Of a stretch of DNA of 64,000 nucleotides, positions 12,621-49,667 are shown piece by piece (positions within the stretch are counted from its first letter, which is position 1; each line of letters starts with the position of its first letter). The position numbers were made by a program, and so were the translations under genes. The stretch lies in the IMG/VR virus record IMGVR_UViG_3300022594_000001. One strand, given 5' to 3'. The notes beneath the pieces were generated by a model that made no database searches, was not told where the DNA came from, and saw nothing but the letters and a program-made list of their open reading frames with translations. Origin of the DNA: a virus. Taxonomy: Duplodnaviria > Caudoviricetes.

Positions 12621-12633
12621 AGCGTCCTTTTTT
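12607..12633. terminator. bidirectional intrinsic terminator between convergent dCMP deaminase and phoH
   Basis: AAAAGGACGC-ATAAA-GCGTCCTTTT, T-tract on + and A-tract (T on -). Confidence 0.75.
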
Positions 12634-12638
12634 GTTAG

Positions 12639-17682: not shown

Positions 17683-17711
17683 TTGACAGGTCCAATTAAA
17701 TAGTGTACTAT
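17683..17711 (+). promoter_or_regulatory. sigma70-type promoter for the dnaJ-def-clpA operon, with nested TAAATA and a 10-bp inverted repeat
   Basis: TTGACA-17bp-TACTAT; TAAATA 17697-17702; ACAGGTCCAA (17686-95) / TTGGACCTGT (17722-31). Confidence 0.65.
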
Positions 17712-17735
17712 ACATTATTATTTGGACCTGTTCTT

Positions 17736-18593: not shown

Positions 18594-19080
18594 TCCAATA
18601 CTAAAACAGACAGCAGTCGAATGGGACTTTGCTGTAGATACTAACTCTGAAGAAGTAGAAGCTGAAATGGTTTCTATTATGAAAACATTACACGGGCGTG
18701 GCTTAGCTGGCAATCAGGTTGGGCTTTTAAAGCGAGTATTCACAATACACCTCGATAACCATCCAGAATTAAAAGAACCATTTGCAATGTTTAACCCAAA
18801 AGTTATTTCAGTAAATGGCGCTCACGAAGAAATGTTTGAAGAAGGATGTTTAAGTTTTCCAAATCTTTGGTTACAAGTTAAACGTCCAATGAGCATTACT
18901 TCAGAATACTTTGACAAAACTGGAAAATTGTGTATAATAGAACTAACTGGAATAGATGCCAGGTGCTTTTTACATGAGCTAGACCATTTAAATGGAACAG
19001 TTTTTACAGAAAAAGTTAGCCAAATGAAGCTATTACTAGCTCGCAAAAAACAAAGGAAAAATAATGGTAGAACCAAGTGA
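18571..19080 (+). CDS. def: peptide deformylase
   Basis: GLAGNQVG, EGCLS, HELDH. Confidence 0.93.
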   Translation: MKLVVNPDPILKQTAVEWDFAVDTNSEEVEAEMVSIMKTLHGRGLAGNQVGLLKRVFTIHLDNHPELKEPFAMFNPKVISVNGAHEEMFEEGCLSFPNLWLQVKRPMSITSEYFDKTGKLCIIELTGIDARCFLHELDHLNGTVFTEKVSQMKLLLARKKQRKNNGRTK

Positions 19081-30003: not shown

Positions 30004-32670
30004 ATGTCTTATGTAGACGCATACTTTGATCGCGACAACGACATCATTAAAGTTGTTGAACGCAGTAAAAAAGGTGAACGAGAATTTAAAGATATTCCCG
30101 TTAAACATACCTTTTATTACAAAGACTCAAGAGGAAAACATTTATCAATCTATGGTGATCCCCTTTCACGAGTCATTTGTAAAAATACAAAAGATTTTAG
30201 AAAAGAGTTAGCAATTAACTCAGGCAAACAAATCTTTGAGGGAGATATCAACCCAATCTTTGTTTGTTTATCAGAACACTATATTAATATCGATGCTCCA
30301 AAACTAAACGTAGCGTTTTTTGATATTGAGGTGGACTTTGATCCAGAACGTGGCTATGCAAGTCCAGATGATGCATTTATGCCTATTACTGCGATCGCTG
30401 TTCACCTACAATGGTTAGACACTATGATTTGTTTAGCAATTCCTCCAAAGACATTAACTATGGAAGAAGCTAAGAAGCAAGTCGAAGAATTCCCTAATAC
30501 ATATTTGTTTGATAACGAAGCAGATATGCTAGATATGTTCTTAGATCTAATTCAAGACGCAGATGTGTTAAGTGGATGGAACTCAGAAGGCTTTGATATT
30601 CCATATACCGTTAACCGTGTTACTAAAACATTAAGCAAAGAAGATACAAGACGTTTTTGTTTGTTTAATCAGTTTCCACGTAGACGTGAATACGAAAAGT
30701 TCGGGCGTGATGCAGTAACATTTGATTTAGTCGGTCGTGTACACTTAGATAGTTTAGAATTATATCGCAAATATACGTATGAAGAACGTCATAGCTATCG
30801 ACTAGATGCTATTGCAGAGTATGAACTAGGCGAACGTAAAACACAGTACGAAGGTACATTGGATCAACTATACAACAATGACTTTAAAACATTCATTGAA
30901 TATAACAGACAAGACTGTGCGCTTCTTGATCGTTTAGATAAGAAGCTTAAATTCTTAGACTTAGCTAACACACTAGCACACGAAAACACTGTATTACTAC
31001 AAACTACAATGGGTGCTGTGGCTGTTACTGAACAAGCTATTATTAACGAAGCACATCGTAGAGGTTTCCAAGTACCTAATCGTCCTAAAATGGACGAACG
31101 TGAAAATAACCAAGCTGCCGGTGCGTATGTTGCATATCCTAAAGAGGGTTTGCAAGATTGGGTTGGATCATTGGATATTAACTCACTATATCCTAGTGCA
31201 ATTAGAGCACTTAATATGGGTCCCGAAACCATTGTTGGACAATTGCGTCAAACTAAAACAGATGCATATATCGAAAACCAAATGGCAAAAGGCAAATCAT
31301 TTGCTGCTGCATGGGAAGGTAAGTTTGGTACAGATGAGTATGAAGCTGTAATGGCTCAGGAAATTGGTACTGATATTACTATTGACTGGGAAAATGGTGA
31401 AAGCGATGTAGTTAGTGCTGCTGAAGTATATAGATTAATCTTCGAAAGTAATCAACCATGGATGATTAGTGCTAACGGTACTATCTTTACATGGGAAAAA
31501 GAAGGTATTATCCCAGGTCTACTAAAACGTTGGTATGCAGAACGTAAAGAGATGCAAGCCAAACTAAAGGAGGCTATTAATGCTAGTAACAAAATTGAAG
31601 AAGAATATTGGGACAAGAGACAGTTGGTTAAAAAGATTAACCTTAATTCGCTCTATGGTGCCATTCTTAATCCTGGCTGTCGCTTTTTCGATAAACGTAT
31701 CGGCCAATCTACTACCCTTACTGGACGTCAGATTGCAAAGCACATGGCTGGAAAAGTCAATGAAATCATTGCAGGAGAATATAACCACGTCGGTAAGGCA
31801 ATTATCTATGGAGACACCGACTCATGTTATTTCTCTGCTTATAAAACGCTAAAGAAAGAAATCGATGCTGGGCATATTCCATGGACTAAAGAAAGTGTAG
31901 TGCAGTTATATGATCAAATCGGTGAAGAGGTTAATGCCACATTCCCACAATTCATGCTCGATTATTTCCATTGTCCAAAGCGTATGGGTGAAGTTATTAA
32001 AGCAGGGCGAGAAGTTGTTGGATCTAAAGCATTGTTTATTACTAAAAAGCGTTATGCCGTACTTGTTTATGACAAAGAAGGTAAGCGTAAAGATAAAGAT
32101 GGTAAACCCGGCGACATCAAAGCTATGGGGTTGGACTTAAAACGCTCAGATACTCCTGAATTTATTCAAGACTTCCTAAGCGATGTATTAGAAATGGTAC
32201 TAACTGGTGCTACTGAAAAAGAAGTATTAGACTTTATTACTGAATTTAGAATTAAATTTAAGGCTCGCCCTGGTTGGGAAAAGGGTTCACCAAAACGTGC
32301 CAATAACATTACTATGTATCAAGGTAAAGAAAAAGATAATGGCAAGACTAACATGCCAGGTCATGTACGTGCAAGTATTAATTGGAACACATTAAAGCGC
32401 ATGTTTGATGACAAATACTCAATGAATATTACCGACGGTGCTAAAGTTATTGTATGTAAACTCAAAGCCAACCCATTAGAGTACGCAAGTGTCGCATATC
32501 CAGTCGACGAATTGAGGTTACCCCAGTGGTTTAAAGATTTACCTTTTAATCATGCAGAAATGGAAGCTACTATTATCGATAAGAAGCTAGAAAACCTTAT
32601 TGGTGTATTGAAGTGGCGTATTGCTGACACTGAAGAAAAGAATACATTTAACAGTTTATTCGAGTTCTAA
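30004..32670 (+). CDS. polB: family B DNA polymerase (T4 gp43-like)
   Basis: Exo FDIE, DINSLYPS, KINLNSLYG, YGDTDS. Confidence 0.95.
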   Translation: MSYVDAYFDRDNDIIKVVERSKKGEREFKDIPVKHTFYYKDSRGKHLSIYGDPLSRVICKNTKDFRKELAINSGKQIFEGDINPIFVCLSEHYINIDAPKLNVAFFDIEVDFDPERGYASPDDAFMPITAIAVHLQWLDTMICLAIPPKTLTMEEAKKQVEEFPNTYLFDNEADMLDMFLDLIQDADVLSGWNSEGFDIPYTVNRVTKTLSKEDTRRFCLFNQFPRRREYEKFGRDAVTFDLVGRVHLDSLELYRKYTYEERHSYRLDAIAEYELGERKTQYEGTLDQLYNNDFKTFIEYNRQDCALLDRLDKKLKFLDLANTLAHENTVLLQTTMGAVAVTEQAIINEAHRRGFQVPNRPKMDERENNQAAGAYVAYPKEGLQDWVGSLDINSLYPSAIRALNMGPETIVGQLRQTKTDAYIENQMAKGKSFAAAWEGKFGTDEYEAVMAQEIGTDITIDWENGESDVVSAAEVYRLIFESNQPWMISANGTIFTWEKEGIIPGLLKRWYAERKEMQAKLKEAINASNKIEEEYWDKRQLVKKINLNSLYGAILNPGCRFFDKRIGQSTTLTGRQIAKHMAGKVNEIIAGEYNHVGKAIIYGDTDSCYFSAYKTLKKEIDAGHIPWTKESVVQLYDQIGEEVNATFPQFMLDYFHCPKRMGEVIKAGREVVGSKALFITKKRYAVLVYDKEGKRKDKDGKPGDIKAMGLDLKRSDTPEFIQDFLSDVLEMVLTGATEKEVLDFITEFRIKFKARPGWEKGSPKRANNITMYQGKEKDNGKTNMPGHVRASINWNTLKRMFDDKYSMNITDGAKVIVCKLKANPLEYASVAYPVDELRLPQWFKDLPFNHAEMEATIIDKKLENLIGVLKWRIADTEEKNTFNSLFEF

Positions 32671-32671
32671 T

Positions 32672-33454
32672 ATGAAAATAATTATAGTAGGGTACGGATT
32701 TGTTGGTAAAGCAGTATTCAACGCCCTTAAAACAAAGTACAATGTTGTTATTGTTGATCCGCAGTATACAACAAATGAAATTAAACATCATCCAGATGCT
32801 GATGGTATTATCGTCTGTGTCCCTACACCTAGTTTAGACAACGGTGGATGTGATAGTAGTGCTGTTGCAAATGTGTTAGATCAAGTATTGAATGACAATA
32901 CTCCTATTCTAATTAAAAGCACAGTAACCCCAGTAGTTACTGAAGCGTTAAACGAGATATATTCAAATTTAACCATTACATACAGTCCAGAATTTTTACG
33001 TGCTAAGACTGCCAACCAAGACTTCCTTGATCAGACACACGTAGTTTTTGGCGGTGTAGATCCAGATGGCTTTTGGCAAGATGTGTTTACACCAGTATTA
33101 ACTAACTGCAAACTATACTTTCACTGTAGTCCAACCGAAGCAGCATTGATAAAGTATTCACGAAACGCCTTTTTGGCAACTAAAGTGTCATTCTTTAATC
33201 AATTGTTTGACTTATGCAATGCGTCAGGTGCAGACTTTGATGTAGTTAGACAGTTAGTAGCACAAGATACTCGCATTGGTGCTGGACATAGCCTAGTACC
33301 AGGGCTAGATGGAGAAAGGGGATTCGGTGGTGCGTGTTTCCCTAAGGATACAGCAGCACTTTTACACTATGCAAATAGCAAAGGCATTAATTTAAGCGTT
33401 ATAGATTCGGCTGTTAATTACAATAAAACGGTAAGAAATTCTATTGACATTTAA
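32672..33454 (+). CDS. UDP-glucose/GDP-mannose dehydrogenase family, lacking the C-terminal domain (start reassigned to 32672)
   Basis: GYGFVG, CVPTP, KSTV, SPEFL, KYSRNAFLATKVSF, GFGGACFPKD; 260 aa. Confidence 0.85.
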   Translation: MKIIIVGYGFVGKAVFNALKTKYNVVIVDPQYTTNEIKHHPDADGIIVCVPTPSLDNGGCDSSAVANVLDQVLNDNTPILIKSTVTPVVTEALNEIYSNLTITYSPEFLRAKTANQDFLDQTHVVFGGVDPDGFWQDVFTPVLTNCKLYFHCSPTEAALIKYSRNAFLATKVSFFNQLFDLCNASGADFDVVRQLVAQDTRIGAGHSLVPGLDGERGFGGACFPKDTAALLHYANSKGINLSVIDSAVNYNKTVRNSIDI

Positions 33455-33491: not shown

Positions 33492-34223
33492 ATGAAAGAC
33501 ATTTTACAAGACATCGTAACACATACACATTCACTAGGAATTATTCCTTTGGTGAAGATTACAAGCACAACAGAAAACACAGACATTGAAGCAATGGCCG
33601 AAGATCGTTCTGTTATTGTTAACGCAACAACTAAAACACCAATTAGTAACTTTGAAGGTGTATTTGGTATGCCTAACTTAAACAAATTAGCTATCCACCT
33701 TGCTTGCCCAGAATACAAAGAAAAGGCAAAAATTACTGTGTCAACTGGACAGCGTAACGGAGAAGAAGTTCCAACAGGACTACACTTCGAAAACGAAACA
33801 GGCGACTTTCAAAACGACTATCGTTTTATGAATACAGAAGTTGTCAATGAAAAATTAAAGACTGTTAAATTCAAAGGTGCTACATGGAACATTGAATTTG
33901 AACCAAGCGCAGCAGCTATTCAACGTTTAAAGTTTCAAGCAAACGCAAATAGTGAAGAAACAGTATTCCAAGTTAGTACAGATAACGATAACTTAATTTT
34001 TAACTTTGGTGATGCAAGTACACACGCAGGTAGCTTTATTTTCGAAGCAAATGTTTCAGGTAAATTAAAACAAACTTGGGCATGGCCAGTTACACAAGTT
34101 ATGAGCATTTTATCATTAACTGGCGATAAGACTGTTCGTATTGCAGATGTAGGCGTAATGCAAATTACAGTTGACAGCGGAATGGCTGAATACAACTACT
34201 TTTTACCAGCACAAACAAAGTAA
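33492..34223 (+). CDS. DNA sliding clamp (gp45-like)
   Basis: 243 aa alternating beta/alpha pattern, FGMPNLNKL, position next to the polymerase; clamp loader present in the window. Confidence 0.6.
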   Translation: MKDILQDIVTHTHSLGIIPLVKITSTTENTDIEAMAEDRSVIVNATTKTPISNFEGVFGMPNLNKLAIHLACPEYKEKAKITVSTGQRNGEEVPTGLHFENETGDFQNDYRFMNTEVVNEKLKTVKFKGATWNIEFEPSAAAIQRLKFQANANSEETVFQVSTDNDNLIFNFGDASTHAGSFIFEANVSGKLKQTWAWPVTQVMSILSLTGDKTVRIADVGVMQITVDSGMAEYNYFLPAQTK

Positions 34224-34426
34224 TGGAAACTCACAAAAGAACAGTTGTAAGAATGATCACCTATCGCCTAACAGCGTGGGTGTTCACTATCCTATGGACT
34301 TATTTGTTTACAGGTGACTTAGGAAGTGCTACTGGATTTGCTACAGTACTACATATTCTTTTGAGTATTGACTACTACATACACGAAAGAATCTGGCTAA
34401 AGATTAAATGGGGCAAAATTGAATAA
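34223..34426 (+). CDS. small membrane protein, DUF2061-like
   Basis: ETHKRTVVRMITYR...YYIHERIWLKIKWG. Confidence 0.7.
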   Translation: METHKRTVVRMITYRLTAWVFTILWTYLFTGDLGSATGFATVLHILLSIDYYIHERIWLKIKWGKIE

Positions 34427-36203
34427 GAATTTAACAGCAACACAAAACGACTACGCAGTATTTTTGCCCGCAACATCTGGATTTTATGCTACCTTTATTG
34501 GTAGACAGCACTATGGTAACTATGTAGATCCTGCACGTATACCAGCGCCATGGGCAAGTGGTATGGACGGGCTTAATTATCTAGAACCAGATAAGGGCGA
34601 GTTTTACTATAGATGGTGTTTGTATTCAGCAGGACATGCTAATTTAGATCTCACTAAACCGGATCAATGCGAAGATATGTTCCGCAAACGAGACCGTTCA
34701 ACATCTTGGGTGTTAGGCGACTCGGGCGGATTCCAGATCGGTAAAGGTGTATGGGAAGGTGAATGGAGAGATCCAACTGGTCCAGAAGTACAGGCTAAAA
34801 TGGCAGAATGTATTGCCAAAGGCATAGAGCTTGTACCCGTTATTGACGCAACCGGTAACCACGCTCTTGATAAGAAAGGCAATCCTAAGTACACTAAAGT
34901 CGATCACGTTAAGCAATATCAAGCAAAACTTGATGCGGCACATAAGAAGCGTACACAGGTGTTAACCTGGATGGACACACTTATGGACTATGGTATGGTC
35001 CTTGATATTCCAGCGTGGGTTGAACGTAGTCCAGCAGGACGTGCAGCAACTGGCATTACTAGCTATGACGAAGCTGTAGACGCAACTAGATACAATAACT
35101 CATACTGGATACAACACCGAACAGGTGCTTGTAAGTTTTTAAACGTTTTACAAGGCGAGAATCACGCACAAGCAGAAGACTGGTATCAAAAGATGAAAGA
35201 CTTTTGCGATCCTAACATCTATGGAGATAAAGCCTTTAACGGCTGGGCCATGGGTGGACAGAATATGTGCGATGTACACTTAGTACTAAAAAGATTAGTT
35301 GCATTACGATTTGACGGACTACTTGAAAAGGGTCAACATGATTGGATGCACTTCTTGGGCACCTCTAAATTAGAGTGGGCTGTTTTATTAACTGATATTC
35401 AACGAGCTGTAAGGAAATACCACAATGAAAACTTTACCATATCTTTTGACTGCGCCTCACCGTTTTTGGCAACAGCAAACGGACAAATCTACATCCAAAC
35501 AGAACTCACCGACAGACAAAAGTGGGTCTACAGAATGGTGCCGTCTGCTGATGACAAAAAGTACGCTCAAGACACAAGACTCTTCAAAGACGCAGTAATT
35601 CAAGATAAAATTTTTAGTAACTTTGATCCAAGTCCGTTAATTGATCAAGTTCGGATTAATGAAATTTGTATTTACGGTGCCGGCACACCTAAACCAGGTG
35701 TTACAAATCCAGACCCAACAAATTTAAATGATTGGTTAATTCCTCCAGACTTAAACAAGTTAGGTAAAGTTAGCAATCGCACAAGTTGGGATTCATTTAG
35801 CTATGCTATACAAATGGGTCATAATGTATGGAGTCATATCAATGCTGTGCAAACAGCTAACCAAGCATACGACAGCAACATTATGCCAGCAATGATGGAT
35901 ACAGTATACGCACATAGAAAGAAAGATTTCTTTTACGACTTGCGTTATTTTAAAGATATGGTTGAAGCTATCTTTGCAGCAACTACTAGAGACGAAGCAA
36001 ACAGACTAGTCGATCTTTATAAAAATTATTTTGATACTATTATTGGTACTAGAGGCAATACTGGTAACAAAATGACTAATGCAAGTAGTCAGTTTAGTGT
36101 ATTATTTGACATCGACGAGGACCCTGCTTCAGACGAACATGGTGATGAATTTACTGACGAAGAAATTCATAAACTTGACGACTTAGAGGATAGTGTAAAA
36201 TGA
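34419..36203 (+). CDS. dpdA: DNA 7-deazaguanine transglycosylase (DpdA/TGT family)
   Basis: GDSGGFQIG, MVLDIP, WAMGG, HFLGTS, SFDCASP TGT-barrel motifs; folE and queE nearby. Confidence 0.8.
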   Translation: MNKNLTATQNDYAVFLPATSGFYATFIGRQHYGNYVDPARIPAPWASGMDGLNYLEPDKGEFYYRWCLYSAGHANLDLTKPDQCEDMFRKRDRSTSWVLGDSGGFQIGKGVWEGEWRDPTGPEVQAKMAECIAKGIELVPVIDATGNHALDKKGNPKYTKVDHVKQYQAKLDAAHKKRTQVLTWMDTLMDYGMVLDIPAWVERSPAGRAATGITSYDEAVDATRYNNSYWIQHRTGACKFLNVLQGENHAQAEDWYQKMKDFCDPNIYGDKAFNGWAMGGQNMCDVHLVLKRLVALRFDGLLEKGQHDWMHFLGTSKLEWAVLLTDIQRAVRKYHNENFTISFDCASPFLATANGQIYIQTELTDRQKWVYRMVPSADDKKYAQDTRLFKDAVIQDKIFSNFDPSPLIDQVRINEICIYGAGTPKPGVTNPDPTNLNDWLIPPDLNKLGKVSNRTSWDSFSYAIQMGHNVWSHINAVQTANQAYDSNIMPAMMDTVYAHRKKDFFYDLRYFKDMVEAIFAATTRDEANRLVDLYKNYFDTIIGTRGNTGNKMTNASSQFSVLFDIDEDPASDEHGDEFTDEEIHKLDDLEDSVK

Positions 36204-37420
36204 AAAGACGCATCGGAGTCATCGGTGTAGGCAGTGCAGGTATTGTTACACTATGCAAACTGCTAGCATCATTAAGTAATGAATGGGATGTTGTTTCAAT
36301 ATATAATCCAAATATTCCTATTTTAGGAATAGGTGAAAGTACTAATCCTAGTTTTATTCGACTATTAGAACTAGGAACTAGATTTTCTCTCTTAGCAGAT
36401 ACTGATAAACTTGATAGCACTTTAAAATTTGGTACACAGTTTATTAATTGGAGAGATGAGCCGTGGCTTAATCCGTTATTAAGCGGTGGAGTTGCTGTTC
36501 ATTTTAATAACTTTAAATTAAAAGAATTTGCTTTTTCCAGATTTCCAACATTGTGGCCAGAAAAATTTAAAGTTATAGAAGGAAATGTTGATAAAGTTAC
36601 TAACACTAACGATAACGTTACCTTAGAAATCAATGGCAAGGAAGAAGTATTTGATTGGGTTATTGACTGCGGTGGATTTCCTAGCGACGAAGATGAGTAC
36701 ATTAAAAGCACATGTACTATTATGAATCGCTGTTTAGTCTACAGCTTTTTGGAATTTGACCCAATACAATACACTGAGCACATTGCAACACCTAACGGTT
36801 GGATGTTTGGCATTCCACTACAATCAAGAAAAACTTACGGATACTTGTTTAACGATGTAATTACGCCTGTTGAAGAAGCTCAGAAAGATATGGCTAGCAT
36901 ATTAAAAATAGGTGTTGATCAATTAACTACCTCTAACGAGTATCGAGAATATGCATTTAACTCATACTATACATCAAAATTTGTTAACAAACGAGTAATG
37001 AAGAATGGTAATAGAGCATTGTTTTTTGAACCTATTAGTGCAACATCAATTAATCAATACATTGCCACTTGTGATTTAATAATTCAAGTGCTGCTAAATG
37101 GCATGAATGAACCAGAAGCAAATGCGCAGTTTATTCACGAATCACAAATTACTGAAGATATTCTTAATTTTTACTATCACGGTGGTACTACATTTGATAC
37201 ACCATTTTGGCGAGCTGCAAAAGAAAACTCTATCAAACAATTAGACAATAATTTTAGATTTAATTACGTGCTCGATCTTAATCAAAGAGCAATGTCATAC
37301 GGATTGCCATACAACGGACAGGCACATTTATTTTCAAACTATTCACTAGTTGTTATGGATGAGGCATTTGGATATAATTATTTCAAAGGTGCTCCTCGTC
37401 CGTTTAGCCATCCTACTTGA
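36200..37420 (+). CDS. flavin-dependent halogenase (tryptophan halogenase family)
   Basis: GVGSAG, GIGEST, TLKFGTQFINW (catalytic Lys position), DCGGF, GWMFGIP (WxWxIP variant), FFEPISATSI; ATGA overlap with dpdA. Confidence 0.8.
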   Translation: MKRRIGVIGVGSAGIVTLCKLLASLSNEWDVVSIYNPNIPILGIGESTNPSFIRLLELGTRFSLLADTDKLDSTLKFGTQFINWRDEPWLNPLLSGGVAVHFNNFKLKEFAFSRFPTLWPEKFKVIEGNVDKVTNTNDNVTLEINGKEEVFDWVIDCGGFPSDEDEYIKSTCTIMNRCLVYSFLEFDPIQYTEHIATPNGWMFGIPLQSRKTYGYLFNDVITPVEEAQKDMASILKIGVDQLTTSNEYREYAFNSYYTSKFVNKRVMKNGNRALFFEPISATSINQYIATCDLIIQVLLNGMNEPEANAQFIHESQITEDILNFYYHGGTTFDTPFWRAAKENSIKQLDNNFRFNYVLDLNQRAMSYGLPYNGQAHLFSNYSLVVMDEAFGYNYFKGAPRPFSHPT

Positions 37421-37445
37421 TTTTACATTACATTTATCGTATAAT
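37417..37445 (+). promoter_or_regulatory. sigma70-type promoter, predicted leaderless
   Basis: TTGATT-17bp-TATAAT, 6 nt before the ATG at 37452. Confidence 0.65.
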
Positions 37446-37451
37446 ACACAC

Positions 37452-37712
37452 ATGACAATGCCAGACGAAAGATTCCGAGCAGTTCTGTACGCAGAAGAAT
37501 TTCTACGTGCAATAGCTGATCCAAACATTACTAAGCGTATTCCAAAAGAAATACGCCAACGTGCTCGCGGAATCCTTCGTCACTATCCTAGTACGTGGGA
37601 TATGCAACAGGCTGCAGAAGCAAGCCCGCATGTGTTTGCCGAACGGATGGAAGATGTAACTAGACTTTTTAAACAATACGAACAATCAAAGGCAAATAAG
37701 AATGAAGCGTGA
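37452..37712 (+). CDS. hypothetical protein (start reassigned to 37452)
   Basis: MTMPDERFRAV...LRHYP; directly after a promoter. Confidence 0.65.
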   Translation: MTMPDERFRAVLYAEEFLRAIADPNITKRIPKEIRQRARGILRHYPSTWDMQQAAEASPHVFAERMEDVTRLFKQYEQSKANKNEA

Positions 37713-38217
37713 ACACAAAGGTGCATTTGATCCAGAAGGTGTGCGATTCTTTACAGGTAAAGAAGTAGAGCATACTCCTGCATATGGAATGGATACATTA
37801 TTTGTAATCGGTATCCAACCTACTACAGAAATAACCCCCAGACTACAAAATATAGGCACACATATCTTCTTTGGTGCTGATCATAGCTTTGATCCGAAAA
37901 CACGAGAAGATTGGAAAGAGTGGGAGGCTATGATCGAACACTATTTAAAAATGGGTATACTGTGTAGCCTTGACATTCCATTAAGTGCTGTTGAAGAATT
38001 CAACGAAGGCCCGTTAAATGAATACGATAATTTCATTCCACAAATTAGAGTTCCAATTCCTTATATTAAATTATGGAATTATAATACAATGCTTAAAATA
38101 GATGATAAAGATTTTAAAGCAACTAATCCCGGTGTGTGGACACATAGTCTACATGATTTAAAAGATCGTTCTAAGTTTACTCCTTGGGACAAATATAATA
38201 GCGACAAAACAGTATGA
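37702..38217 (+). CDS. hypothetical protein coupled to the QueD-like gene
   Basis: 171 aa; ATGA overlap with 38214. Confidence 0.7.
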   Translation: MKREHKGAFDPEGVRFFTGKEVEHTPAYGMDTLFVIGIQPTTEITPRLQNIGTHIFFGADHSFDPKTREDWKEWEAMIEHYLKMGILCSLDIPLSAVEEFNEGPLNEYDNFIPQIRVPIPYIKLWNYNTMLKIDDKDFKATNPGVWTHSLHDLKDRSKFTPWDKYNSDKTV

Positions 38218-38630
38218 TTATCAAGCAAGACATTCGCCCTTTAAAAATGATCTGGGTTAATTTCCAGAAAGAAGGCATTCACAAATATCCAGCGGCACTT
38301 ACAGATCCCGCATTAGCTACAGGAGATGAATACGATGTATCGTTTTTGGGTTATCCTCACCGTCATATTTTCCATTTCAGGGTGTGGATCAGTGTGCAGC
38401 ACAACGACAGGGACATCGAGTTCATCCAATTCAAACGTTGGCTCACTTCGTTGTATCAATCAAGTGCCGACAATAACAGTAGTCAAGATTCCGTTTTAAA
38501 TCTTGACTATAAGAGTTGTGAAATGATATCAGACGATTTGTATGATGTCATTAGCAAGAAGTATCCAAATCGCGAAGTTTGGATTGAGGTTTCCGAAGAT
38601 TCGGAAAATGGTTCATTTATCAAATATTAA
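38214..38630 (+). CDS. dpdL: QueD-like T-fold enzyme with LxxxHRHxF motif (probable DpdL, CDG decarboxylase)
   Basis: FLGYPHRHIF instead of QueD CxxxHGH; SCE and EVSEDSENG; DpdL signature recalled from the literature, not searched. Confidence 0.6.
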   Translation: MIIKQDIRPLKMIWVNFQKEGIHKYPAALTDPALATGDEYDVSFLGYPHRHIFHFRVWISVQHNDRDIEFIQFKRWLTSLYQSSADNNSSQDSVLNLDYKSCEMISDDLYDVISKKYPNREVWIEVSEDSENGSFIKY

Positions 38631-38644
38631 AATAAGAGGCTACT

Positions 38645-38911
38645 ATGGCTAAAAATTATAACGACATCGTTTATTCTGAAACTAAAAACGGTAAGGATTC
38701 CGCTGACATCTTTGATGTACTAGAAGGATATCTAGATTACTGTCGTTTTGAACTCCTTGAGTTCGACCCATCACATTACAGTGTAAGGGGTAATCATCAT
38801 CCACAATATCGTGGTTACATAAACAGTAAGAGACCACGCAAGCCATATTTAGGAAACAAGCCTAGATATAACAACAATAACAGACGCCATGAGCAGAATT
38901 TTTCTAATTGA
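38645..38911 (+). CDS. hypothetical protein
   Basis: 88-aa ORF with GAGG RBS. Confidence 0.55.
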   Translation: MAKNYNDIVYSETKNGKDSADIFDVLEGYLDYCRFELLEFDPSHYSVRGNHHPQYRGYINSKRPRKPYLGNKPRYNNNNRRHEQNFSN

Positions 38912-39959
38912 TTTAGAAGCCGTTGAAACAAGGTACACGGGTCAGTGGAAGACCCATGTACCTGAACTCTTACGAAAGGCAGGACACAATGTTCAAATTA
39001 TCTCTGGGCCTACGGATATTCCTTCAGCCACTACTCCTGGTGCTTTTCTTAATTTTGGTGGCACCAATATATACAAGTCTAGCCAAGTTGAGCAAATGGG
39101 CCGTTTATTTTGTAGCGGATCCGTTTATCCCGGCGACCACTTTATTTTTACTGACGCTTGGCATCCGGGCATTATAAACCTAAAGTACATGAGTGAGCTA
39201 CTAGGTATTCCAGTAGTTACACATGGCTTATGGCATGCTGGTAGTTATGATCCTCAAGACTTCCTTGGACGCTTAGTCGGAGATAAGCCTTGGGTCAGAC
39301 ATGCAGAACAAAGTTTCTATCATGCGTTCGATCATAACTACTTTGCTACACAATTCCACATTGAAATGTTTGGTAAGAATCTGTTAGGCAAAGCAGGATA
39401 TGTTCCAGAAGCTAATGTAACAGGTAAAGTTGTTCGCACAGGTTGGCCTATGGAATATATGCAAGATACCTTGCTAGAATATAAGGGTATGGAAAAACGT
39501 AACCTTATTTTATTCCCACATCGAATTGCTCCAGAAAAACAAGTTGATATTTTTAGAGACTTGAAAGAACGCTTACCACAATACGAGTTTGTAGTATGCC
39601 AGGATCAACAGCTAACAAAAAATGAATATCATAATTTGTTAGGCGAATCAAAATTAGTGTTTAGTGCAAACTTACAAGAAACATTAGGTATTAGTTGGTA
39701 CGAAGGAGCAGTAGTAGATGCTATTCCTATGGTACCGGATCGCCTAAGCTATAGCGAAATGGCAATGGATGAATTCAAGTATCCAAGCAACTGGACCGAA
39801 AGCTATAACCATTATGTAGCAAATAGGAACGAAGTCTGCGATCGTATCGTAGAGTACATGGATAATTACACTAAGTATATTCCACTTGTACACAAACAAA
39901 TGGAGGTGCTACGTGACAACTTCTTCAGCGCAAGAAACATTCTCAATAACATTAACTGA
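38889..39959 (+). CDS. GT-B fold glycosyltransferase (GT4-like)
   Basis: FPHRIAPEKQ, ETLGISWYE (E-x7-E), VPDRLSYSE. Confidence 0.75.
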   Translation: MSRIFLIDLEAVETRYTGQWKTHVPELLRKAGHNVQIISGPTDIPSATTPGAFLNFGGTNIYKSSQVEQMGRLFCSGSVYPGDHFIFTDAWHPGIINLKYMSELLGIPVVTHGLWHAGSYDPQDFLGRLVGDKPWVRHAEQSFYHAFDHNYFATQFHIEMFGKNLLGKAGYVPEANVTGKVVRTGWPMEYMQDTLLEYKGMEKRNLILFPHRIAPEKQVDIFRDLKERLPQYEFVVCQDQQLTKNEYHNLLGESKLVFSANLQETLGISWYEGAVVDAIPMVPDRLSYSEMAMDEFKYPSNWTESYNHYVANRNEVCDRIVEYMDNYTKYIPLVHKQMEVLRDNFFSARNILNNIN

Positions 39960-40694: not shown

Positions 40695-40911
40695 ATCAGT
40701 TAGAGATAGCTACAAAGAAATGGTTATCAAAGAATCCGAAGGCTTTCGCCTAACACTGAAGAAGCACGAAGTATTAAGTCCTAAAGGCTTGTTTAGTATC
40801 GATATGCTTCAAGAAAGTTTGAAAGACGGTGAGGTTGTTAGCTCGCAAGAATATAACTTCTTTATGACTAAAGAAGAATGTCAAGCACTAGCATATGGCC
40901 TAACTGCATGA
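40681..40911 (+). CDS. hypothetical protein (start reassigned to 40681)
   Basis: GGAG RBS upstream of MELHES. Confidence 0.55.
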   Translation: MELHESVRDSYKEMVIKESEGFRLTLKKHEVLSPKGLFSIDMLQESLKDGEVVSSQEYNFFMTKEECQALAYGLTA

Positions 40912-41435
40912 AGAAAGTCTATTATTCTTGGCAACAAGTACAAGGTGCCTGTTTAGATATTGCTAGACAATTACGCAAAGATAAATGGGCACCTGACTAT
41001 ATCGTTGGCATTACCAGAGGAGGAGCAGTTCCTGCCATACTGTTAAGTCAATATTTAGATGTACCAATGCGCCCACTACAAGTAAGTTTACGAGATGGTG
41101 GAGAATGTGTTAGCGATTGCGGAATGGCTGAAGATGCGTTTGGACATCTCATTTACGATCCAATGTGCTCCGGCGACGGCAAGAAAAAGATCCTAGTCGT
41201 CGATGATATTAACGATCAAGGATCAACTATTGCTTGGATTAAACAAGACTGGCAAGCAAGTTGTCATCCAAACGACGAACGTTGGCTTAACGAAATATGG
41301 GGACGAAATGTCCGCTTTGCTACACTTACCGACAATATTGCTAGCAAAGAAACTGTTGACTACTCAGTGTGGGAAGTTAACAAGGCAGAAGAAGATTGTT
41401 GGTTAGTTTATCCTTGGGAGGATTTTTGGAAATGA
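40908..41435 (+). CDS. purine phosphoribosyltransferase (Gpt/Xpt-like, type I PRTase)
   Basis: GITRGG, ILVVDDINDQGST PRPP-binding loop, WLVYPWE. Confidence 0.85.
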   Translation: MKKVYYSWQQVQGACLDIARQLRKDKWAPDYIVGITRGGAVPAILLSQYLDVPMRPLQVSLRDGGECVSDCGMAEDAFGHLIYDPMCSGDGKKKILVVDDINDQGSTIAWIKQDWQASCHPNDERWLNEIWGRNVRFATLTDNIASKETVDYSVWEVNKAEEDCWLVYPWEDFWK

Positions 41436-42258: not shown

Positions 42259-42954
42259 ATGTCAGAAAAAAACTTATCACAAGTAATACGCGAACAAATG
42301 AAACGACAAGGCAAACGTTTCTGGGCTGGCGACAATATTAGCGATTATGTCGATGAAGAACAAAAAGAAGTATTAATCGAAGAAGCTACTGTAGCTTTTG
42401 AAAAGGTACTAGATACACTTTTGATTGATAGAGAAACAGATCCAAATTCGCACGGTACTGCAAAGCGCCTAGCTAAAATGTATTTTAATGAAATTATGTC
42501 AGGGCGTTATGATCCTGCACCAGACGCAACAGCGTTTCCAAATGATAGTGAGGATAGATATGAAGGCATGTTGGTTGTTCGTAGTGAGTTGCGTAGTATG
42601 TGTAGTCATCATCACCAACCCGTTACTGGCGTTGCTTATATTGGCATTATTGCCGCTCAAAAACTTATTGGCTTATCTAAGTACACCCGAATCGCACAGT
42701 GGTGTGCTAGAAGAGGTACACTCCAGGAGGAACTTTGTAATGATATTGCTAGGGAAATCGCAAAAGCAACAGAAGCTAGAGACATAGGTGTTTATGTACA
42801 AGCTGTACACGGGTGCTGTGAGAATCGCGGAATTATGGCTAAAAGTAGTTTAACACAAACTACTGTACTTAAAGGTGCGTTTAAAGAAGATGCAGGTACA
42901 AAGAAAGAATTCTTTGACAACATTAAAATGCAACAGGAGTACGCCTCAAAATGA
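42259..42954 (+). CDS. folE: GTP cyclohydrolase I
   Basis: SMCSHH, GLSKYTRI, QEEL, HGCCENRG. Confidence 0.92.
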   Translation: MSEKNLSQVIREQMKRQGKRFWAGDNISDYVDEEQKEVLIEEATVAFEKVLDTLLIDRETDPNSHGTAKRLAKMYFNEIMSGRYDPAPDATAFPNDSEDRYEGMLVVRSELRSMCSHHHQPVTGVAYIGIIAAQKLIGLSKYTRIAQWCARRGTLQEELCNDIAREIAKATEARDIGVYVQAVHGCCENRGIMAKSSLTQTTVLKGAFKEDAGTKKEFFDNIKMQQEYASK

Positions 42955-43172: not shown

Positions 43173-43563
43173 TCCACAAGTTCCAGCCGAAGGTATCCTA
43201 ATTAGAAAGGATTATGGCGATGCCAAAAGTTACACTGTACCGTGTGAATGCTGTGGCTCCAATTGCGAGCACAATGTCTGGGTCGAAGCAGACGAAACAG
43301 GAGTCACAGTCACAACATACACCCAACAAAAAACAAAATGGTGGGAACTTAACAGATGGCAAGTCATTTGGCGATTGCTTACAACAGGCTATGTCGAATA
43401 TGAAGCGTCCATTATAATGTCCAAACAACAAGCTCTTAACTACTCAGCCGTGTTACAATCATCTGTTAACGATATAGAGCAGTTTGAAAAAGATCGTAAA
43501 TGGAAACAAGATTTAGTTAATAAAATTGCTACTAGATTAGCCAATGAAGGTGATTGTGAATGA
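43165..43563 (+). CDS. hypothetical protein with CECC..C.H motif (start reassigned to 43165)
   Basis: Possible Zn ribbon VPCECCGSNCEH. Confidence 0.55.
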   Translation: MTNPQVPAEGILIRKDYGDAKSYTVPCECCGSNCEHNVWVEADETGVTVTTYTQQKTKWWELNRWQVIWRLLTTGYVEYEASIIMSKQQALNYSAVLQSSVNDIEQFEKDRKWKQDLVNKIATRLANEGDCE

Positions 43564-44411
43564 GTAAAATTAAAATTGCAGAACTATTTTATAGTGTACA
43601 AGGTGAAGGACGTTACATGGGTGTACCGTCTGTTTTCTTACGTACATTTGGATGTAACTTTAAATGTGCCGGCTTCGGTATGCCTCGAGGCGAACTAAGC
43701 ATAGAAGCAGAGGACATTGCACAAGTTGCACACTTATACAACAAATATGAAGAACTTCCTTTGGTTACTACGGGGTGTGACAGTTATGCTAGTTGGCATC
43801 CTAGTTTTAAAGAACTTAGTCCAATGCTCACTTCAGACGCAATCGCCGATAGAATCTCGGAAATTATTCCGTTCGGCGAATGGAAAGATGAACACTTGGT
43901 AATCACAGGCGGTGAGCCATTGCTAGGTTGGCAACGTGCTTATCCAGACTTGCTAGATCATCCTAAGATGAAAGGCTTGAAAGAAATTACCTTTGAAACA
44001 AACGGTACTCAAAAACTTACACAAGACTTTAAAAATTATTTAGGTGTATGGAAAGGTCTTCCAAGACAAAAACGTGAAATTACATTTAGTGTAAGTGCCA
44101 AGTTGCCGTGCAGTGGCGAAAAGTGGGAAGAAGCTATTCAACCAGACATTGTATGCGAATACGAAGAAGTTGGAACTGCATACTTAAAATTTGTTATTTC
44201 TACAGAACAAGATTTTGAGGATGCTCAACGTGCAGTTGCTGAGTATCGTAAAGCAGGATTTACAGGACACGTTTATCTAATGCCGGTTGGTGGTGTTGAA
44301 AGTGTTTATGCATTAAACAATAAAGCAGTAGCTATTATGGCAATGAAAGCAGGTTTACGGTATAGTGATAGATTGCAAGTGCCATTATTTAAAAATGAAT
44401 GGGGAACCTAA
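43560..44411 (+). CDS. queE: 7-carboxy-7-deazaguanine synthase (radical SAM)
   Basis: ELFYSVQGEG, FLRTFGC, ITGGEP, FETNGT, VSAKL, RLQV; split Cys motif CX3CX36C. Confidence 0.85.
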   Translation: MSKIKIAELFYSVQGEGRYMGVPSVFLRTFGCNFKCAGFGMPRGELSIEAEDIAQVAHLYNKYEELPLVTTGCDSYASWHPSFKELSPMLTSDAIADRISEIIPFGEWKDEHLVITGGEPLLGWQRAYPDLLDHPKMKGLKEITFETNGTQKLTQDFKNYLGVWKGLPRQKREITFSVSAKLPCSGEKWEEAIQPDIVCEYEEVGTAYLKFVISTEQDFEDAQRAVAEYRKAGFTGHVYLMPVGGVESVYALNNKAVAIMAMKAGLRYSDRLQVPLFKNEWGT

Positions 44412-44605: not shown

Positions 44606-45053
44606 GAATTTTTTTAGAAAAATTACAGGACTAGATGCATTAGATAAAGCTAAAGAGCAAGCACTAGAAGAAGCCCGTGCCGCTGTTAAGTTAGCTGCAC
44701 ACGCACAAGCAGAATTAGAAGCTGCTAAGGCAGCAGAGGAGGCAGCAAAACTGGGCCCAAAAGAACGTGCAACTGCCCAAGGGATGCCTTATGTAGCTGT
44801 TTTAGATACGCACGTAAATAAAGACAACATTCGCAATGGATTCTTTGAGCTAGACTGGAATGATCAATTTATTGTAGAACTTAAAACTGCTGGATATGGA
44901 TTTGACGGTGATCCAGACGAAGAGATTGTGGATCGTTGGTTTAGAGATCTAGCGGCAAACATGCTAGCAGAAGCAGGCGAAGATCCATCTAGACATACTG
45001 CTGGATTTATTAACGTTAACAGAATTAATCCTAATCGTTCAGAGATTTCTTAA
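44598..45053 (+). CDS. hypothetical protein
   Basis: 151 aa, FFELDWN..F motif. Confidence 0.65.
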   Translation: MIKNFFRKITGLDALDKAKEQALEEARAAVKLAAHAQAELEAAKAAEEAAKLGPKERATAQGMPYVAVLDTHVNKDNIRNGFFELDWNDQFIVELKTAGYGFDGDPDEEIVDRWFRDLAANMLAEAGEDPSRHTAGFINVNRINPNRSEIS

Positions 45054-45634
45054 TGCACACTGTATTAGAAAATAACGAATACATCGACCAGTACAACTGG
45101 TCGTCTTTAATTACGCAAGAAGATAATATGCAATTAATGACTATTGCTAAAAGTATCATTGATGCAGGCGATTATTTTACTAATAGTCCTAAGTTTCAAA
45201 CTAGACAAAATTTATTTGCAAGACCAGAACCAGTCTTTTTAAAGATGCGTCAAAGTTTTATATACTCTTGTTTTATGTTTTTAGAAAAAGAAGTTCGTAT
45301 TAAAAACATTATGAGTTGGGTTTTTATGACTAACAACAAGACTACGGAAAATAGAGATGATTTTTGGCATAACCATCATATTAGCGATAATGACGGTACT
45401 ACGGATACACTTAGTGGAATTTGGTACGTGCATATTCCCAAAGTTCAAAATCAAGATATTACCGGAACCGAATATTCAATGGCAGGGCCTCCCAACTTTA
45501 ACGACACATTCTTTTTAAAACCAAAAGAGTTGACTTGGAACGTATATCCTAGTAAACTGTGGCATAGACCCGGAATCACAGATTCAGACGATTACCGGTT
45601 TGTTTTTGCAGCAGACATGGAATACTATAAATGA
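45053..45634 (+). CDS. 2OG-Fe(II) oxygenase-like protein
   Basis: WHNH...SGIWYVHIP...YPSKLWHRP...R jelly-roll facial-triad pattern. Confidence 0.6.
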   Translation: MHTVLENNEYIDQYNWSSLITQEDNMQLMTIAKSIIDAGDYFTNSPKFQTRQNLFARPEPVFLKMRQSFIYSCFMFLEKEVRIKNIMSWVFMTNNKTTENRDDFWHNHHISDNDGTTDTLSGIWYVHIPKVQNQDITGTEYSMAGPPNFNDTFFLKPKELTWNVYPSKLWHRPGITDSDDYRFVFAADMEYYK

Positions 45635-46650
45635 CATATATTTTGGTTGATACAGCCAACACATTCTTTCGTGCTAGACACGTAGTTCAAGGTAATGCCG
45701 ACATTAAGCTCGGCATGGCATTCCATATTACATTTAATTCAATTAAAAAAGCGTGGCAAGACTTTGATGGGAAACATGTTGTGTTTGCATTAGAAGGTCG
45801 TTCGTGGCGTAAAGACTTTTACAAGCCTTACAAAGCACAACGAGCAGAAGCCCGTGCAGCAGCAACAGAACGCGAACAAGAAGAAGATACATTATTTTGG
45901 GAAGCCTTTGATGAATTTAAAAAGTTCATTACAGAAAAGACTAATGTAACAGTCTTACATCACCCACAACTTGAAGCAGACGATTTAATTGCTGGATTTG
46001 TACAAGCCCATCCAAATGAGAAACATGTTATCATTAGCAGCGATGGAGACTTTGCACAGTTAATTGCACCAAATGTTCAACAGTACAACGGAATTGCTGA
46101 AGTAACAACAACTCACGAAGGGTACTTTGATGCAAAAGGCAAAAGAATTAAAGATAAAAAAACAGGCGAAGATAAGCCAGCACCTAATCCAACATGGCTC
46201 TTGTTTGAAAAATGTATGCGTGGTGATACCAGTGATAATGTCTTCTCGGCGTATCCAGGTGTGCGTACTAAAGGCAGTAAAAACAAAGTGGGTCTTACTG
46301 AAGCGTTTGAAGATCGTAACAGCAAAGGATTTTCGTGGAACAATCTCATGTTGCAGAGATGGGTTGACCACAATGGTGTAGAACATCGTGTTCTAGACGA
46401 CTATCAACGCAATGTAACATTGTGCGATTTATCAGCGCAGCCGGCAGATATACGTGCATTAATTAACGAAACAATTGACACAAACGCAGTACCAAAAGAT
46501 ATTACTCAAGTAGGTATTCGTATGTTAAAATTCTGCAATACATGGGACATGAAGAAGATTGCAGACAACATACAATCGTATGCTGAACCGTTCCAAGCAA
46601 AGTACCCAGAGTCATCTGTTACTTTACGTAAACTTAACCAGGAGTATTAA
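45631..46650 (+). CDS. rnh: T4 RNase H / 5'-3' flap exonuclease
   Basis: ILVDTAN, WRKDFYKPYK, LEADDLI, SSDGDFAQL, GDTSDNV. Confidence 0.88.
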   Translation: MTYILVDTANTFFRARHVVQGNADIKLGMAFHITFNSIKKAWQDFDGKHVVFALEGRSWRKDFYKPYKAQRAEARAAATEREQEEDTLFWEAFDEFKKFITEKTNVTVLHHPQLEADDLIAGFVQAHPNEKHVIISSDGDFAQLIAPNVQQYNGIAEVTTTHEGYFDAKGKRIKDKKTGEDKPAPNPTWLLFEKCMRGDTSDNVFSAYPGVRTKGSKNKVGLTEAFEDRNSKGFSWNNLMLQRWVDHNGVEHRVLDDYQRNVTLCDLSAQPADIRALINETIDTNAVPKDITQVGIRMLKFCNTWDMKKIADNIQSYAEPFQAKYPESSVTLRKLNQEY

Positions 46651-48500: not shown

Positions 48501-49592
48501 ATGGCAGAAATTAACAGCCGCACCGTTGGCCCTAAAGATGCAAAAAAGTCTTTGCGTAAAGCGTTTAAAAATCAGCGTCCTATCTTTATTTGGGGTCCTC
48601 CAGGTATTGGTAAGTCAGACATTATTAAGCAACTTGGCGGCGAGCTAGAAGCTCATGTAATCGACGTGCGCCTTTCACTGTGGGAACCTACTGACATTAA
48701 AGGTATTCCTTACTTTGACAGCAACGACGGTACTATGCGTTGGGCACCTCCAGGCGAATTGCCAAGCAAAGAGTTTGCTGCTAACCACAAACAAATCATC
48801 TTGTTCTTGGATGAAATGAACTCAGCTGCACCATCAGTACAAGCTGCTGCATATCAATTGGTGTTGAACCGCAAAGTTGGCACATATGAGTTGCCAGCAA
48901 ACGTTGTAATTGTTGCAGCTGGTAACCGTGAGTCTGACAAAGGTGTTACATACCGTATGCCTGCTCCGTTGGCTAACCGTTTCGTTCACTTGGAAATGGC
49001 TGTTGATTGGGACGACTGGTTTGACTGGGCTACTGACAACCGCACACACAAAGACGTTGTTGGTTTCTTGACTTTCTCTAAGAAAGACTTGTACGACTTT
49101 GATCCAAAGTCTAGCTCACGTGCATTTGCTACACCACGTAGCTGGTCATTTGTTAGCGAATTGTTGCATGATGACGATACCGATCACGACACTTTGATGA
49201 ATTTGGTTACTGGTTCAGTTGGTGAGGGCTTGGCTTCTAAGTTTATGGCACACCGTAAACATGCTAGCAAGTTGCCTAACCCACGTGACATCTTGTCAGG
49301 CAAAGTTAACAAGCTGGATACTAAAGAGATTTCAGCACAGTATTCACTAGTTGTTAGCTTGTGCTACGAGTTGAAAGACTCATGCGATAAGAAAGCTAAA
49401 GACTGGAACGATCAAGTTAACTGCTTCTTCGAGTTCATGATGAAGAACTTTGAAACAGAATTGGTTATCATGGGTACTAAGTTGGCATTGTCTAGCTACA
49501 AGTTGCCGCTGGATCCAGATGAAATCAAGTGCTTTGATGATTTCCATGCTAAGTTCGGTAAGTATATTTCGGCAGCTACCGATAAAAACTAA
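48501..49592 (+). CDS. MoxR-family AAA+ ATPase
   Basis: WGPPGIGKS, LFLDEMN, AAGNR, PLANRF, TPRSW. Confidence 0.85.
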   Translation: MAEINSRTVGPKDAKKSLRKAFKNQRPIFIWGPPGIGKSDIIKQLGGELEAHVIDVRLSLWEPTDIKGIPYFDSNDGTMRWAPPGELPSKEFAANHKQIILFLDEMNSAAPSVQAAAYQLVLNRKVGTYELPANVVIVAAGNRESDKGVTYRMPAPLANRFVHLEMAVDWDDWFDWATDNRTHKDVVGFLTFSKKDLYDFDPKSSSRAFATPRSWSFVSELLHDDDTDHDTLMNLVTGSVGEGLASKFMAHRKHASKLPNPRDILSGKVNKLDTKEISAQYSLVVSLCYELKDSCDKKAKDWNDQVNCFFEFMMKNFETELVIMGTKLALSSYKLPLDPDEIKCFDDFHAKFGKYISAATDKN

Positions 49593-49608
49593 TCCAAAAT
49601 CGAACCAT

Positions 49609-49637
49609 TTGACACCACCTTCGGGTGGTGTTATAAT
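49609..49637 (+). promoter_or_regulatory. consensus sigma70 promoter whose spacer is a C(UUCG)G hairpin
   Basis: TTGACA-17bp-TATAAT; ACACCACC-TTCG-GGTGGTGT at 49612-49631. Confidence 0.8.
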
Positions 49638-49667
49638 ATATACTATAGTAAAACTTTAGGAGCAGAC

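Follow-up and report, generated by a model that had tools for sequence, protein, structure and literature searches.

The stretch of DNA described here, 64,000 nucleotides of IMG/VR virus record IMGVR_UViG_3300022594_000001 (Duplodnaviria; Caudoviricetes), which we call the window, comes from an uncultured jumbo phage of the PA5oct-like kind and lies in the part of its genome given to replication and nucleotide modification. In it the gene for a short flavin-dependent halogenase (FDH) directly follows the gene for a DpdA-like guanine transglycosylase (dpdA) and precedes a DpdL-type gene of the deazaguanine pathway, a neighborhood from which a first-pass annotation had proposed that the phage may place 7-chloro-, 7-bromo- or 7-iodo-7-deazaguanine in its DNA. 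Our analysis leads to a different view, namely that the FDH is probably an optional accessory halogenase which is paired with a 2-oxoglutarate- and Fe(II)-dependent (2OG-Fe(II)) oxygenase and which has a substrate other than deazaguanine. What the analysis shows are the predicted folds, the motifs, the synteny, the distribution and the co-occurrence of the genes concerned; the partnership of the FDH with the oxygenase and the nature of its substrate are inferred. Halogenases of cyanophages were first noted in 2005 and, more than 20 years on, the short phage FDH family is still without an assigned substrate.

The short halogenase and its junction with dpdA

The FDH is most likely a genuine halogenase, with a catalytic activity that we infer from its family, fold and active-site residues. 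It matches PF04820 at 3e-30 (105.8 bits against a cut-off of 21) and phrog_2928 at 1e-66, and its AlphaFold 2 (AF2) model, with a pLDDT of 94.2, retrieves PyrH, RebH, PrnA, Thal and Xcc4156 in Foldseek with E values of ~1e-26 and TM-scores normalized to the query (TMq) of 0.73-0.80. The GxGxxG motif for binding flavin adenine dinucleotide (FAD) is present as G9-V-G11-S-A-G14. In the HMMER alignment to PyrH, K76 (TLKFGTQFINW) falls on the catalytic lysine (KLGIRFENW in PyrH) and E277 (FFEPISATS) on the catalytic-glutamate motif (FVEPLES in PyrH), and both catalytic residues (K79 and E346 of PrnA) are thereby accounted for; the first-pass annotation had noted the FAD motif, this lysine and an FxEP..T motif. 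Across 65 FDH homologues G9, G11, G14, K76, W201, F203, G204, P206, E277 and P278 are invariant.

Several features set the protein apart from the characterized enzymes. The WxWxIP motif is not kept, since the same alignment places GWMFGIP (G-W201-M-F203-G-I-P206) on it and the second tryptophan is a phenylalanine in 65/65 members; the serine and glycine of FxEPxxSxG are replaced by alanine and serine; and there is a weak NCBIfam match to the monooxygenase QhpG, far under the cut-off. The FDH is also ~100-125 residues shorter than PyrH/RebH/PrnA-type enzymes: a stretch of ~80 residues is missing from its interior, and the Trp-binding module at the C-terminus is incomplete. The changes in the two motifs and the QhpG match would suit an FDH fold that has no halogenase activity, i.e., a flavin monooxygenase or an inert protein in which the monooxygenation-blocking WxWxIP has been altered to WxFGxP. 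We consider this unlikely, as the catalytic lysine and glutamate, which are absent from monooxygenases, are invariant in the family and its closest structural counterparts are without exception bona fide halogenases. The exchange of tryptophan for phenylalanine is conservative, and halogenase function may persist despite it.

The junction with dpdA reads ATGA at 36200-36203, so that the ATG of the FDH gene overlaps the TGA of dpdA as had been reported. Exact 4-nt overlaps are found at 12 of the 62 adjacent plus-strand gene pairs in the window (overlaps of any kind at 28), which makes the ATGA junction weak evidence. The overlap that underlay the earlier claim of translational coupling is real, but it is routine in this DNA, and we rejected it as a sign of functional coupling. 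Downstream of the FDH stop codon, the 31-bp spacer at 37421-37451 contains a TATAAT-like box. Judged from the sequence, dpdA-FDH and g86-g171-dpdL may form separate transcription units.

Distribution of the halogenase among related loci

To describe the surroundings of dpdA beyond the window, 80 IMG/VR loci with DpdA identities of 63-80% were fetched. They share the conserved order polB-...-DpdA-(slot)-g171-DpdL-g88-GT-...-FolE-...-QueE-...-FEN, in which the content of the slot that separates dpdA from g171 varies: 53 loci have no more than a small open reading frame (ORF) there, 16 have a pair of oxidoreductase genes, 6 an FDH gene and 1 another gene. Three loci carry the FDH gene and the oxidoreductase pair together, and in L098-L100 the pair comes after the FDH gene. 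The pair consists of a GFO/IDH/MocA-like and an ADH_N-like (MDR-like) protein, e.g., at 11221-13004 in locus L008 and 11798-13692 in L030, and it occupies the position after dpdA in a clade of ~16-20 relatives.

FDH homologues with 58-92% identity, found in ~16 further contigs, all lie directly after dpdA; most of them overlap it, by 4 or 17 nt, and those of L017 and L098-L100 follow at a distance of ~100 nt. The first-pass annotation had named an FDH beside dpdA in this genome only as an outcome that would refute its proposal, and this outcome did not arise. The census has another side, however, as in a QueE-centered sample, which is neutral regarding the FDH and comprises 32 distinct lineages, only 3 of the 32 (~10%) have the gene. 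The FDH-bearing loci are scattered, requiring at least 3-4 changes on the DpdA tree and at least 5-6 on the polB tree, and the DpdA of the FDH-bearing L017 is the same as that of FDH-less loci at all but 41 of 526 positions. Between pairs of loci the identity of the FDH follows that of polB (r = 0.89), for which an old acquisition followed by repeated loss is the simplest history. The FDH is dispensable for the deazaguanine module, and the best-supported reading of its position after dpdA is that of a permissive insertion slot whose content was later inherited. The first-pass annotation had itself cautioned that the adjacency may be incidental, and it is this caveat that the distribution, the variability of the slot and the neighbors of the family elsewhere favor.

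The halogenase family elsewhere and its probable oxygenase partner

A scan with an FDH profile gave 330 IMG/VR matches and 39 cellular loci, the latter in metagenome-assembled genomes of Vulcanimicrobiota, Vampirovibrionales, Polyangiaceae and Burkholderiales. The members of the family are ~400 aa long. In GenBank phages its relatives are proteins of T4-like cyanophages known as "tryptophan halogenases" (20-40% identity), and the remark in the first-pass annotation that homologues of tryptophan halogenases are common in aquatic phages agrees with the wide spread of the family in T4-like aquatic phages and bacteria. Outside the jumbo clade, the ~65 viral and 39 cellular FDH loci have no FolE, QueD, QueE, DpdA or DpdL within 10 kb (tblastn with phage queries, 1e-4). 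Likewise, the 28 GenBank phage records with a DpdL match and the 37 with an FDH match do not overlap at the thresholds used. The commonest neighbors of the FDH are instead oxygenases of PF13759 (24 loci) and PF13640 (20 loci) and long tryptophan halogenases (18 loci), and halogenase/dioxygenase arrays of this kind have been assigned to peptide or secondary-metabolite modification (Iyer et al., NAR 2010, PMC2938197; Viruses 2021, PMC7824862).

The same partner is found in the jumbo clade. A second slot, between g151 and FEN, is occupied in the window by the 2OG-Fe(II) oxygenase-like gene g193 and is also variable across the clade. Wherever this slot can be seen in an FDH-bearing relative, it contains a PF13759-type gene, as it does in 3 of 29 lineages that lack the FDH. 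Counting distinct QueE lineages with both slots covered, both genes are present in 3, the FDH alone in 0, the g193-type gene alone in 3 and neither in 26 (Fisher p = 0.004). Moreover, a second, independently acquired FDH lineage (38-41% identity) adjoins the g193-type gene, before FEN, in L129, L130 and L148. In the relative G006 (331.6 kb, 93% complete), polB-phrog_12062-DpdA-g171-DpdL lie at 66-70 kb with no FDH there; its FDH (45% identity) is encoded at ~283.7 kb, ~215 kb from dpdA, where it shares a 4-nt overlap with a PF13759-like ORF, and an ATP-dependent DNA ligase gene follows the pair. In five further large contigs of the clade an FDH is absent altogether. On the evidence of these loci the short phage FDH keeps company with a 2OG-Fe(II) oxygenase of PF13759, also where kilobases separate their genes.

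Possible substrates of the halogenase

The steps that we envisage are as follows. FolE, QueE and a Cys-type QueD, the last probably encoded in another part of the ~345-kb genome, would produce 7-carboxy-7-deazaguanine (CDG), which the DpdL-type QueD paralogue is proposed to process, and the divergent DpdA would swap guanine in DNA for a deazapurine. The FDH would convert FADH2 and O2 to hypohalous acid, steered by Lys76 and Glu277 onto an electron-rich aromatic carbon; it would probably act together with the g193 oxygenase, and its substrate is probably something other than the deazaguanine in the DNA of the phage.

The alternative that DpdL frees the pyrrole C7 and that the FDH then halogenates C7 (or C8), whether the base is still free and awaits insertion by DpdA or is already in DNA, would give FDH-bearing phages a DNA with chloro-, bromo- or iodo-7-deazaguanine. 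It draws on the placement of the FDH gene immediately after dpdA in the window and its ~16 companions, on the invariant catalytic lysine and glutamate, on the presence of the DpdL motif and on the second FDH lineage, which is also located in this block, two genes after QueE. The shortened FDH is moreover not a standard tryptophan halogenase, and its site may admit a large substrate; in the literature searched, no halogenase has been linked to DpdA or to 7-deazaguanine DNA. We nevertheless judge it most improbable. The FDH has been lost repeatedly while the rest of the module is unchanged, and its slot also houses unrelated oxidoreductases. A scan of the DpdA columns for one that separates FDH-bearing from FDH-less loci found none, the best score (0.56) being that of a column in the low-confidence C-terminal tail, and the enzyme gives no hint of an altered substrate. 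The FDH is ~45-50% identical to T4-like and bacterial members that have no deazaguanine genes nearby, and the many invariant residues common to the clade FDH and these outside members suggest a common substrate. The FDH of G006, remote from dpdA and coupled to an oxygenase, and the disjoint GenBank records point the same way, and the activity of DpdL, on which a free C7 depends, is unproven. Patchy occurrence, a variable slot, oxygenase partners and the remote FDH of G006 thus leave the proposal of halogenated 7-deazaguanine DNA with nothing gained beyond the adjacency from which it started. A minority of these abundant aquatic jumbo phages keep an FDH gene right behind dpdA; that the enzyme, alone or in concert with the oxygenase, puts a halogen on the pyrrole ring of their 7-deazaguanine has, in our estimate, a very slight chance of being correct.

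Our preferred reading, an accessory halogenase acting with an oxygenase away from deazaguanine, has its own difficulties, and several observations weigh against it. All clade FDHs in the sampled flanks sit inside the replication/deazaguanine block, at two slots, and the dpdA-FDH junction was retained while the FDH diverged to 58% identity, which argues for co-expression with dpdA. The association with the oxygenase is concordant in 3/3 phylogenetically independent pairs, too few for significance (sign test p = 0.25); the PF13759 match of g193 is weak (6e-4, below the Pfam cut-off), and this gene is 7.6 kb from the FDH. The tblastn search around the outside loci, with phage queries at E 1e-4, could overlook divergent deazaguanine genes. 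Finally, 7-deazaguanine is a chemically plausible FDH substrate in view of the chemistry of these enzymes on pyrroles and indoles.

A further possibility is a different role of the FDH and the oxygenase in the modification of nucleic acid or nucleotides, e.g., the hydroxylation or halogenation of another base or of a nucleotide pool, which would explain why both genes repeatedly land among replication genes. Both clade lineages are in the replication block, the FDH-oxygenase pair of G006 is followed by the DNA ligase gene, and in cyanophage S-MS29, which has the closest GenBank relative of the FDH (40% identity), its gene stands between those for a late-transcription accessory protein and a helicase loader; in addition, TET/JBP and AlkB, which modify DNA bases, belong to the 2OG-Fe(II) dioxygenases. 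This reading also seems very unlikely to us, given that the T4-like members are mostly in oxygenase/halogenase arrays beside tail-fiber or structural genes, that the cellular members have no nucleic-acid context and that the arrays have been published as peptide/secondary-metabolite modification. The acidity of the FDH (isoelectric point 5.15) also speaks against it, as a weak point, DpdA being acidic too.

The DpdA-like transglycosylase

The product of the gene called dpdA in the first-pass annotation has no match in Pfam, NCBIfam, PHROGs or, with phmmer, the sequences of the PDB, and a hidden Markov model built from its family found no tRNA-guanine transglycosylase (TGT) in the PDB. With PF01702 the window protein gives no match, and 1 of 99 homologues matches at E 0.0087. 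The AF2 model, obtained with 99 diverse homologues, has a pLDDT of 89.9 and a pTM of 0.89, and its top 50 Foldseek matches in the PDB are all TGTs (E 5e-7 to 5e-6, prob 1.0, TM-score normalized to the target, TMt, of ~0.5). Among the 99 homologues D101 (in GDSGGFQ, D101-S-G-G-F-Q), D196, H311 and D344 are invariant or nearly so, and to judge from the motifs D101, D196 and D344 may correspond to TGT residues D102, D156 and D280. The gene at 34419-36203 is, by its predicted structure and recognizable only in this way, a TGT-fold enzyme inside a deazaguanine cluster. The name given to it thus holds up through the predicted fold and the GDSGGFQ motif, but draws no match from the sequence databases.

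In the window and ~80 relatives the protein is encoded together with deazaguanine genes, FolE, QueE and DpdL being at most 8 kb away. It is 31% identical to PA5oct EST35_0316, which has the same synteny. Comparison with phiST gp042 (DpdA3) by hhalign gave 86% probability over just 89 columns, and BLASTP against the 424-aa protein of ACP17 was not significant, with only the motifs DSGG.Q, H.LG and IS.D shared. As far as sequence comparison goes, what connects it with the DpdA3 subfamily (phiST CGPG_00065 type), as named in phiST and ACP17, is at the motif or profile level only. The family is large, with more than 7,500 clusters at 90% identity (E 1e-3), 870 representatives at 50% identity and 209 IMG/VR matches. 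It has no Pfam model despite the confident prediction of a TGT fold, and merits a family definition.

DpdL and the rest of the deazaguanine module

The first-pass annotation had placed a QueD paralogue with the motif LxxxHRHxF less than 1 kb downstream of the FDH, and the gene is indeed there, 794 bp after the FDH, with the motif LGYPHRHIF (L44-GYP-H-R-H-I-F). Its reading of this motif as the mark of DpdL agrees with the published definition, in which LxxxHRHxF is the DpdL signature and replaces the CxxxHGH of QueD (Cui, Hutinet et al. 2023, PMC10516641). The protein is 51% identical to the DpdL of ACP17 (E 5e-33) and 37% identical to that of phiST over half its length. That DpdL decarboxylates CDG was also claimed; this has been published as a proposal, but expression of DpdL with DpdA in E. 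coli gave no 2'-deoxy-7-deazaguanine (dDG) (PMC10516641).

A genome with DpdL would be expected to encode FolE, QueD and QueE but not QueC. The window has FolE, QueE and a weak QueC-like match, and no CxxxHGH (Cys-type) QueD was found in its 64 kb. In the contig of one relative a Cys-type QueD homologue occurs far from the module, and with it the idea that the LxxxHRHxF protein is the sole QueD of the phage was rejected as unnecessary. The homologue (CSMLHGY; locus L291, G005:C1:65983-69087) is clustered, remote from the dpdA module, with genes for a cupin, an FAD-dependent oxidoreductase of 394 aa and a class II aldolase-like protein. The QueC-like gene is ~29 kb from the deazaguanine module of the window. 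With this gene and the failure of DpdL in heterologous tests, the end product of the pathway is less certain, and the free C7 on which the halogenation proposal was premised is less secure than it had seemed. The QueC-like gene is overlapped by a 152-aa ORF with no family match (5475-5933, minus strand), both of them being on the opposite strand amid virion genes.

Two small genes between the FDH and dpdL deserve attention. By tblastn, g171 is found directly upstream of dpdL in nearly all of the 80 related loci and, weakly, in ACP17 (28% identity), and it has no match in Pfam, PHROG or NCBIfam. The 86-aa ORF has no Pfam match, and ORFs of 84-85 aa take its position in the FDH-bearing relatives. 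Cui et al. suspected that other enzymes are needed for dDG formation (PMC10516641), and g171 and the 86-aa ORF are candidates for such enzymes.

The GT4-like glycosyltransferase is 36% identical (E 3e-65) to ASD50404 of ACP17, encoded between the dpdA-like and dpdL genes of that phage; EST35_0317 of PA5oct, in the corresponding place, shares 42% identity with it. Its nearest clusters in a protein atlas carry Glycos_transf_1, which we take as a lead only, and counterparts in relatives lie at 5972-7000 in L092 and 9620-10681 in L001. From the conservation of this gene one may suspect a sugar on the final DNA base. Just upstream of the module lies a gene for a UDP-glucose dehydrogenase-like protein. 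The phosphoribosyltransferase of the module, present in many relatives but not all, could salvage released guanine or turn a deazapurine base into a nucleotide. As to QueE, all three matches (TIGR03365, TIGR03963 and TIGR04349) are under the trusted cut-offs, and the syntenic gene of PA5oct is annotated as 7-carboxy-7-deazaguanine synthase.

Gene content of the window

The genes discussed are collected in Table 1. That the window is phage DNA follows from a tail-collar protein, Ig-like and lectin-domain proteins, a clamp-loader-like AAA+ protein, PhoH, DnaJ, a ClpB-like protein, a family-B DNA polymerase, FEN and ThyX, and an identical copy of its DpdA-like protein is found on contigs of up to 345 kb. 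A MoxR-like AAA+ ATPase followed by a DUF2201 metallopeptidase/VWA protein (48501-50861, plus strand) is a conserved phage pair. Further genes include those for the ClpB-like disaggregase (19064-21346), DnaJ (17703-18593), PhoH (12639-13358) and a papain-like protease (4164-4913).

Table 1. Positions of the deazaguanine, halogenase and neighboring genes in the window.
Feature	Position	Strand	Remarks
QueC-like PP-loop protein, divergent	4903-5496	-	PF06508 4.6e-5, 23.5 bits vs. cut-off 22, C-terminal part only
UDP-glucose dehydrogenase-like	32621-33454	+	
phrog_12062 protein (structural)	33492-34223	+	
DUF2061 protein	34223-34426	+	
DpdA-like guanine transglycosylase, predicted TGT fold, divergent	34419-36203	+	594 aa, TTG start
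Short flavin-dependent halogenase (FDH)	36200-37420	+	406 aa
Small conserved ORF, 86 aa	37452-37712	+	TATAAT-like box upstream
g171, conserved protein	37702-38217	+	between dpdA and dpdL throughout clade
DpdL-type QueD paralogue (proposed CDG decarboxylase)	38214-38630	+	138 aa
GT4-like glycosyltransferase	38889-39959	+	conserved in DpdL-type clusters
Purine-type phosphoribosyltransferase	40878-41435	+	PF00156 at 3e-12; weak xanthine phosphoribosyltransferase match NF006613
GTP cyclohydrolase I (FolE)	42259-42954	+	PF01227 5.6e-39; NF006824 6.5e-40
QueE-like radical-SAM CDG synthase	43560-44411	+	TIGR03365, TIGR03963, TIGR04349, 1e-14 to 2e-15
2OG-Fe(II) oxygenase-like g193	45053-45634	+	PF13759 at 6e-4, below cut-off
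FEN	45631-46650	+	

Significance and comparison with known systems

If it were true, halogenated 7-deazaguanine would be the first natural halogenated DNA base. Our preferred reading of an accessory halogenase with an oxygenase partner directs attention elsewhere, as the short phage FDH and the PF13759 oxygenase form a defined two-enzyme system to assay. The deazaguanine module itself has hot spots for optional enzymes, be it the FDH or the oxidoreductase pair, and the DpdA-like family that is invisible to Pfam marks an abundant PA5oct-like jumbo clade with a DpdL-type deazaguanine module.

Among known systems, the DpdL clusters of ACP17 and phiST resemble the window in having DpdL (51% identity to that of ACP17), FolE, QueE and, by a polymerase gene, a TGT-fold transglycosylase, the fold of the window protein being a predicted one; in ACP17, as in PA5oct, a GT4-like gene accompanies dpdA and dpdL. 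They differ in that the window DpdA shares only motifs with DpdA3, that the window has a QueC-like gene and no Cys-type QueD, and that none of these clusters has an FDH. The Pseudomonas jumbo phage vB_PaeM_PA5oct, which Iyer et al. (Viruses 2021, PMC7824862) list among the phages that make deazaguanine and incorporate it, has the same gene order as the window, with polB, phrog_12062, the DpdA-like and GT-like genes, DpdL, QueE and RNaseH/FEN at identities of 31-51%, but has neither FDH nor g171, and its GT-like gene is between dpdA and dpdL.

On the side of the halogenase, the arrays of T4-like cyanophages (Syn9-type, Iyer et al., NAR 2010, PMC2938197; S-SSM5, S-MS29) have members of the short-FDH family at 40-51% identity with PF13759/PF13640 partners. 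There the genes form multi-gene arrays by tail genes, whereas the window has one FDH and one oxygenase 7.6 kb apart in a replication/deazaguanine block. The cyanophage iodinase VirX1 (PDB 6QGM) matches the window FDH in sequence over the N-terminal 80 residues only (E 3.5e-6). The characterized enzymes PyrH, RebH, PrnA, Thal, Xcc4156, BrvH and VirX1 differ from the window FDH, which is shorter, 17-20% identical to them and has WxFGxP for WxWxIP, but they share with it the fold (TMq 0.73-0.80), the GxGxxG motif and the catalytic lysine and glutamate.

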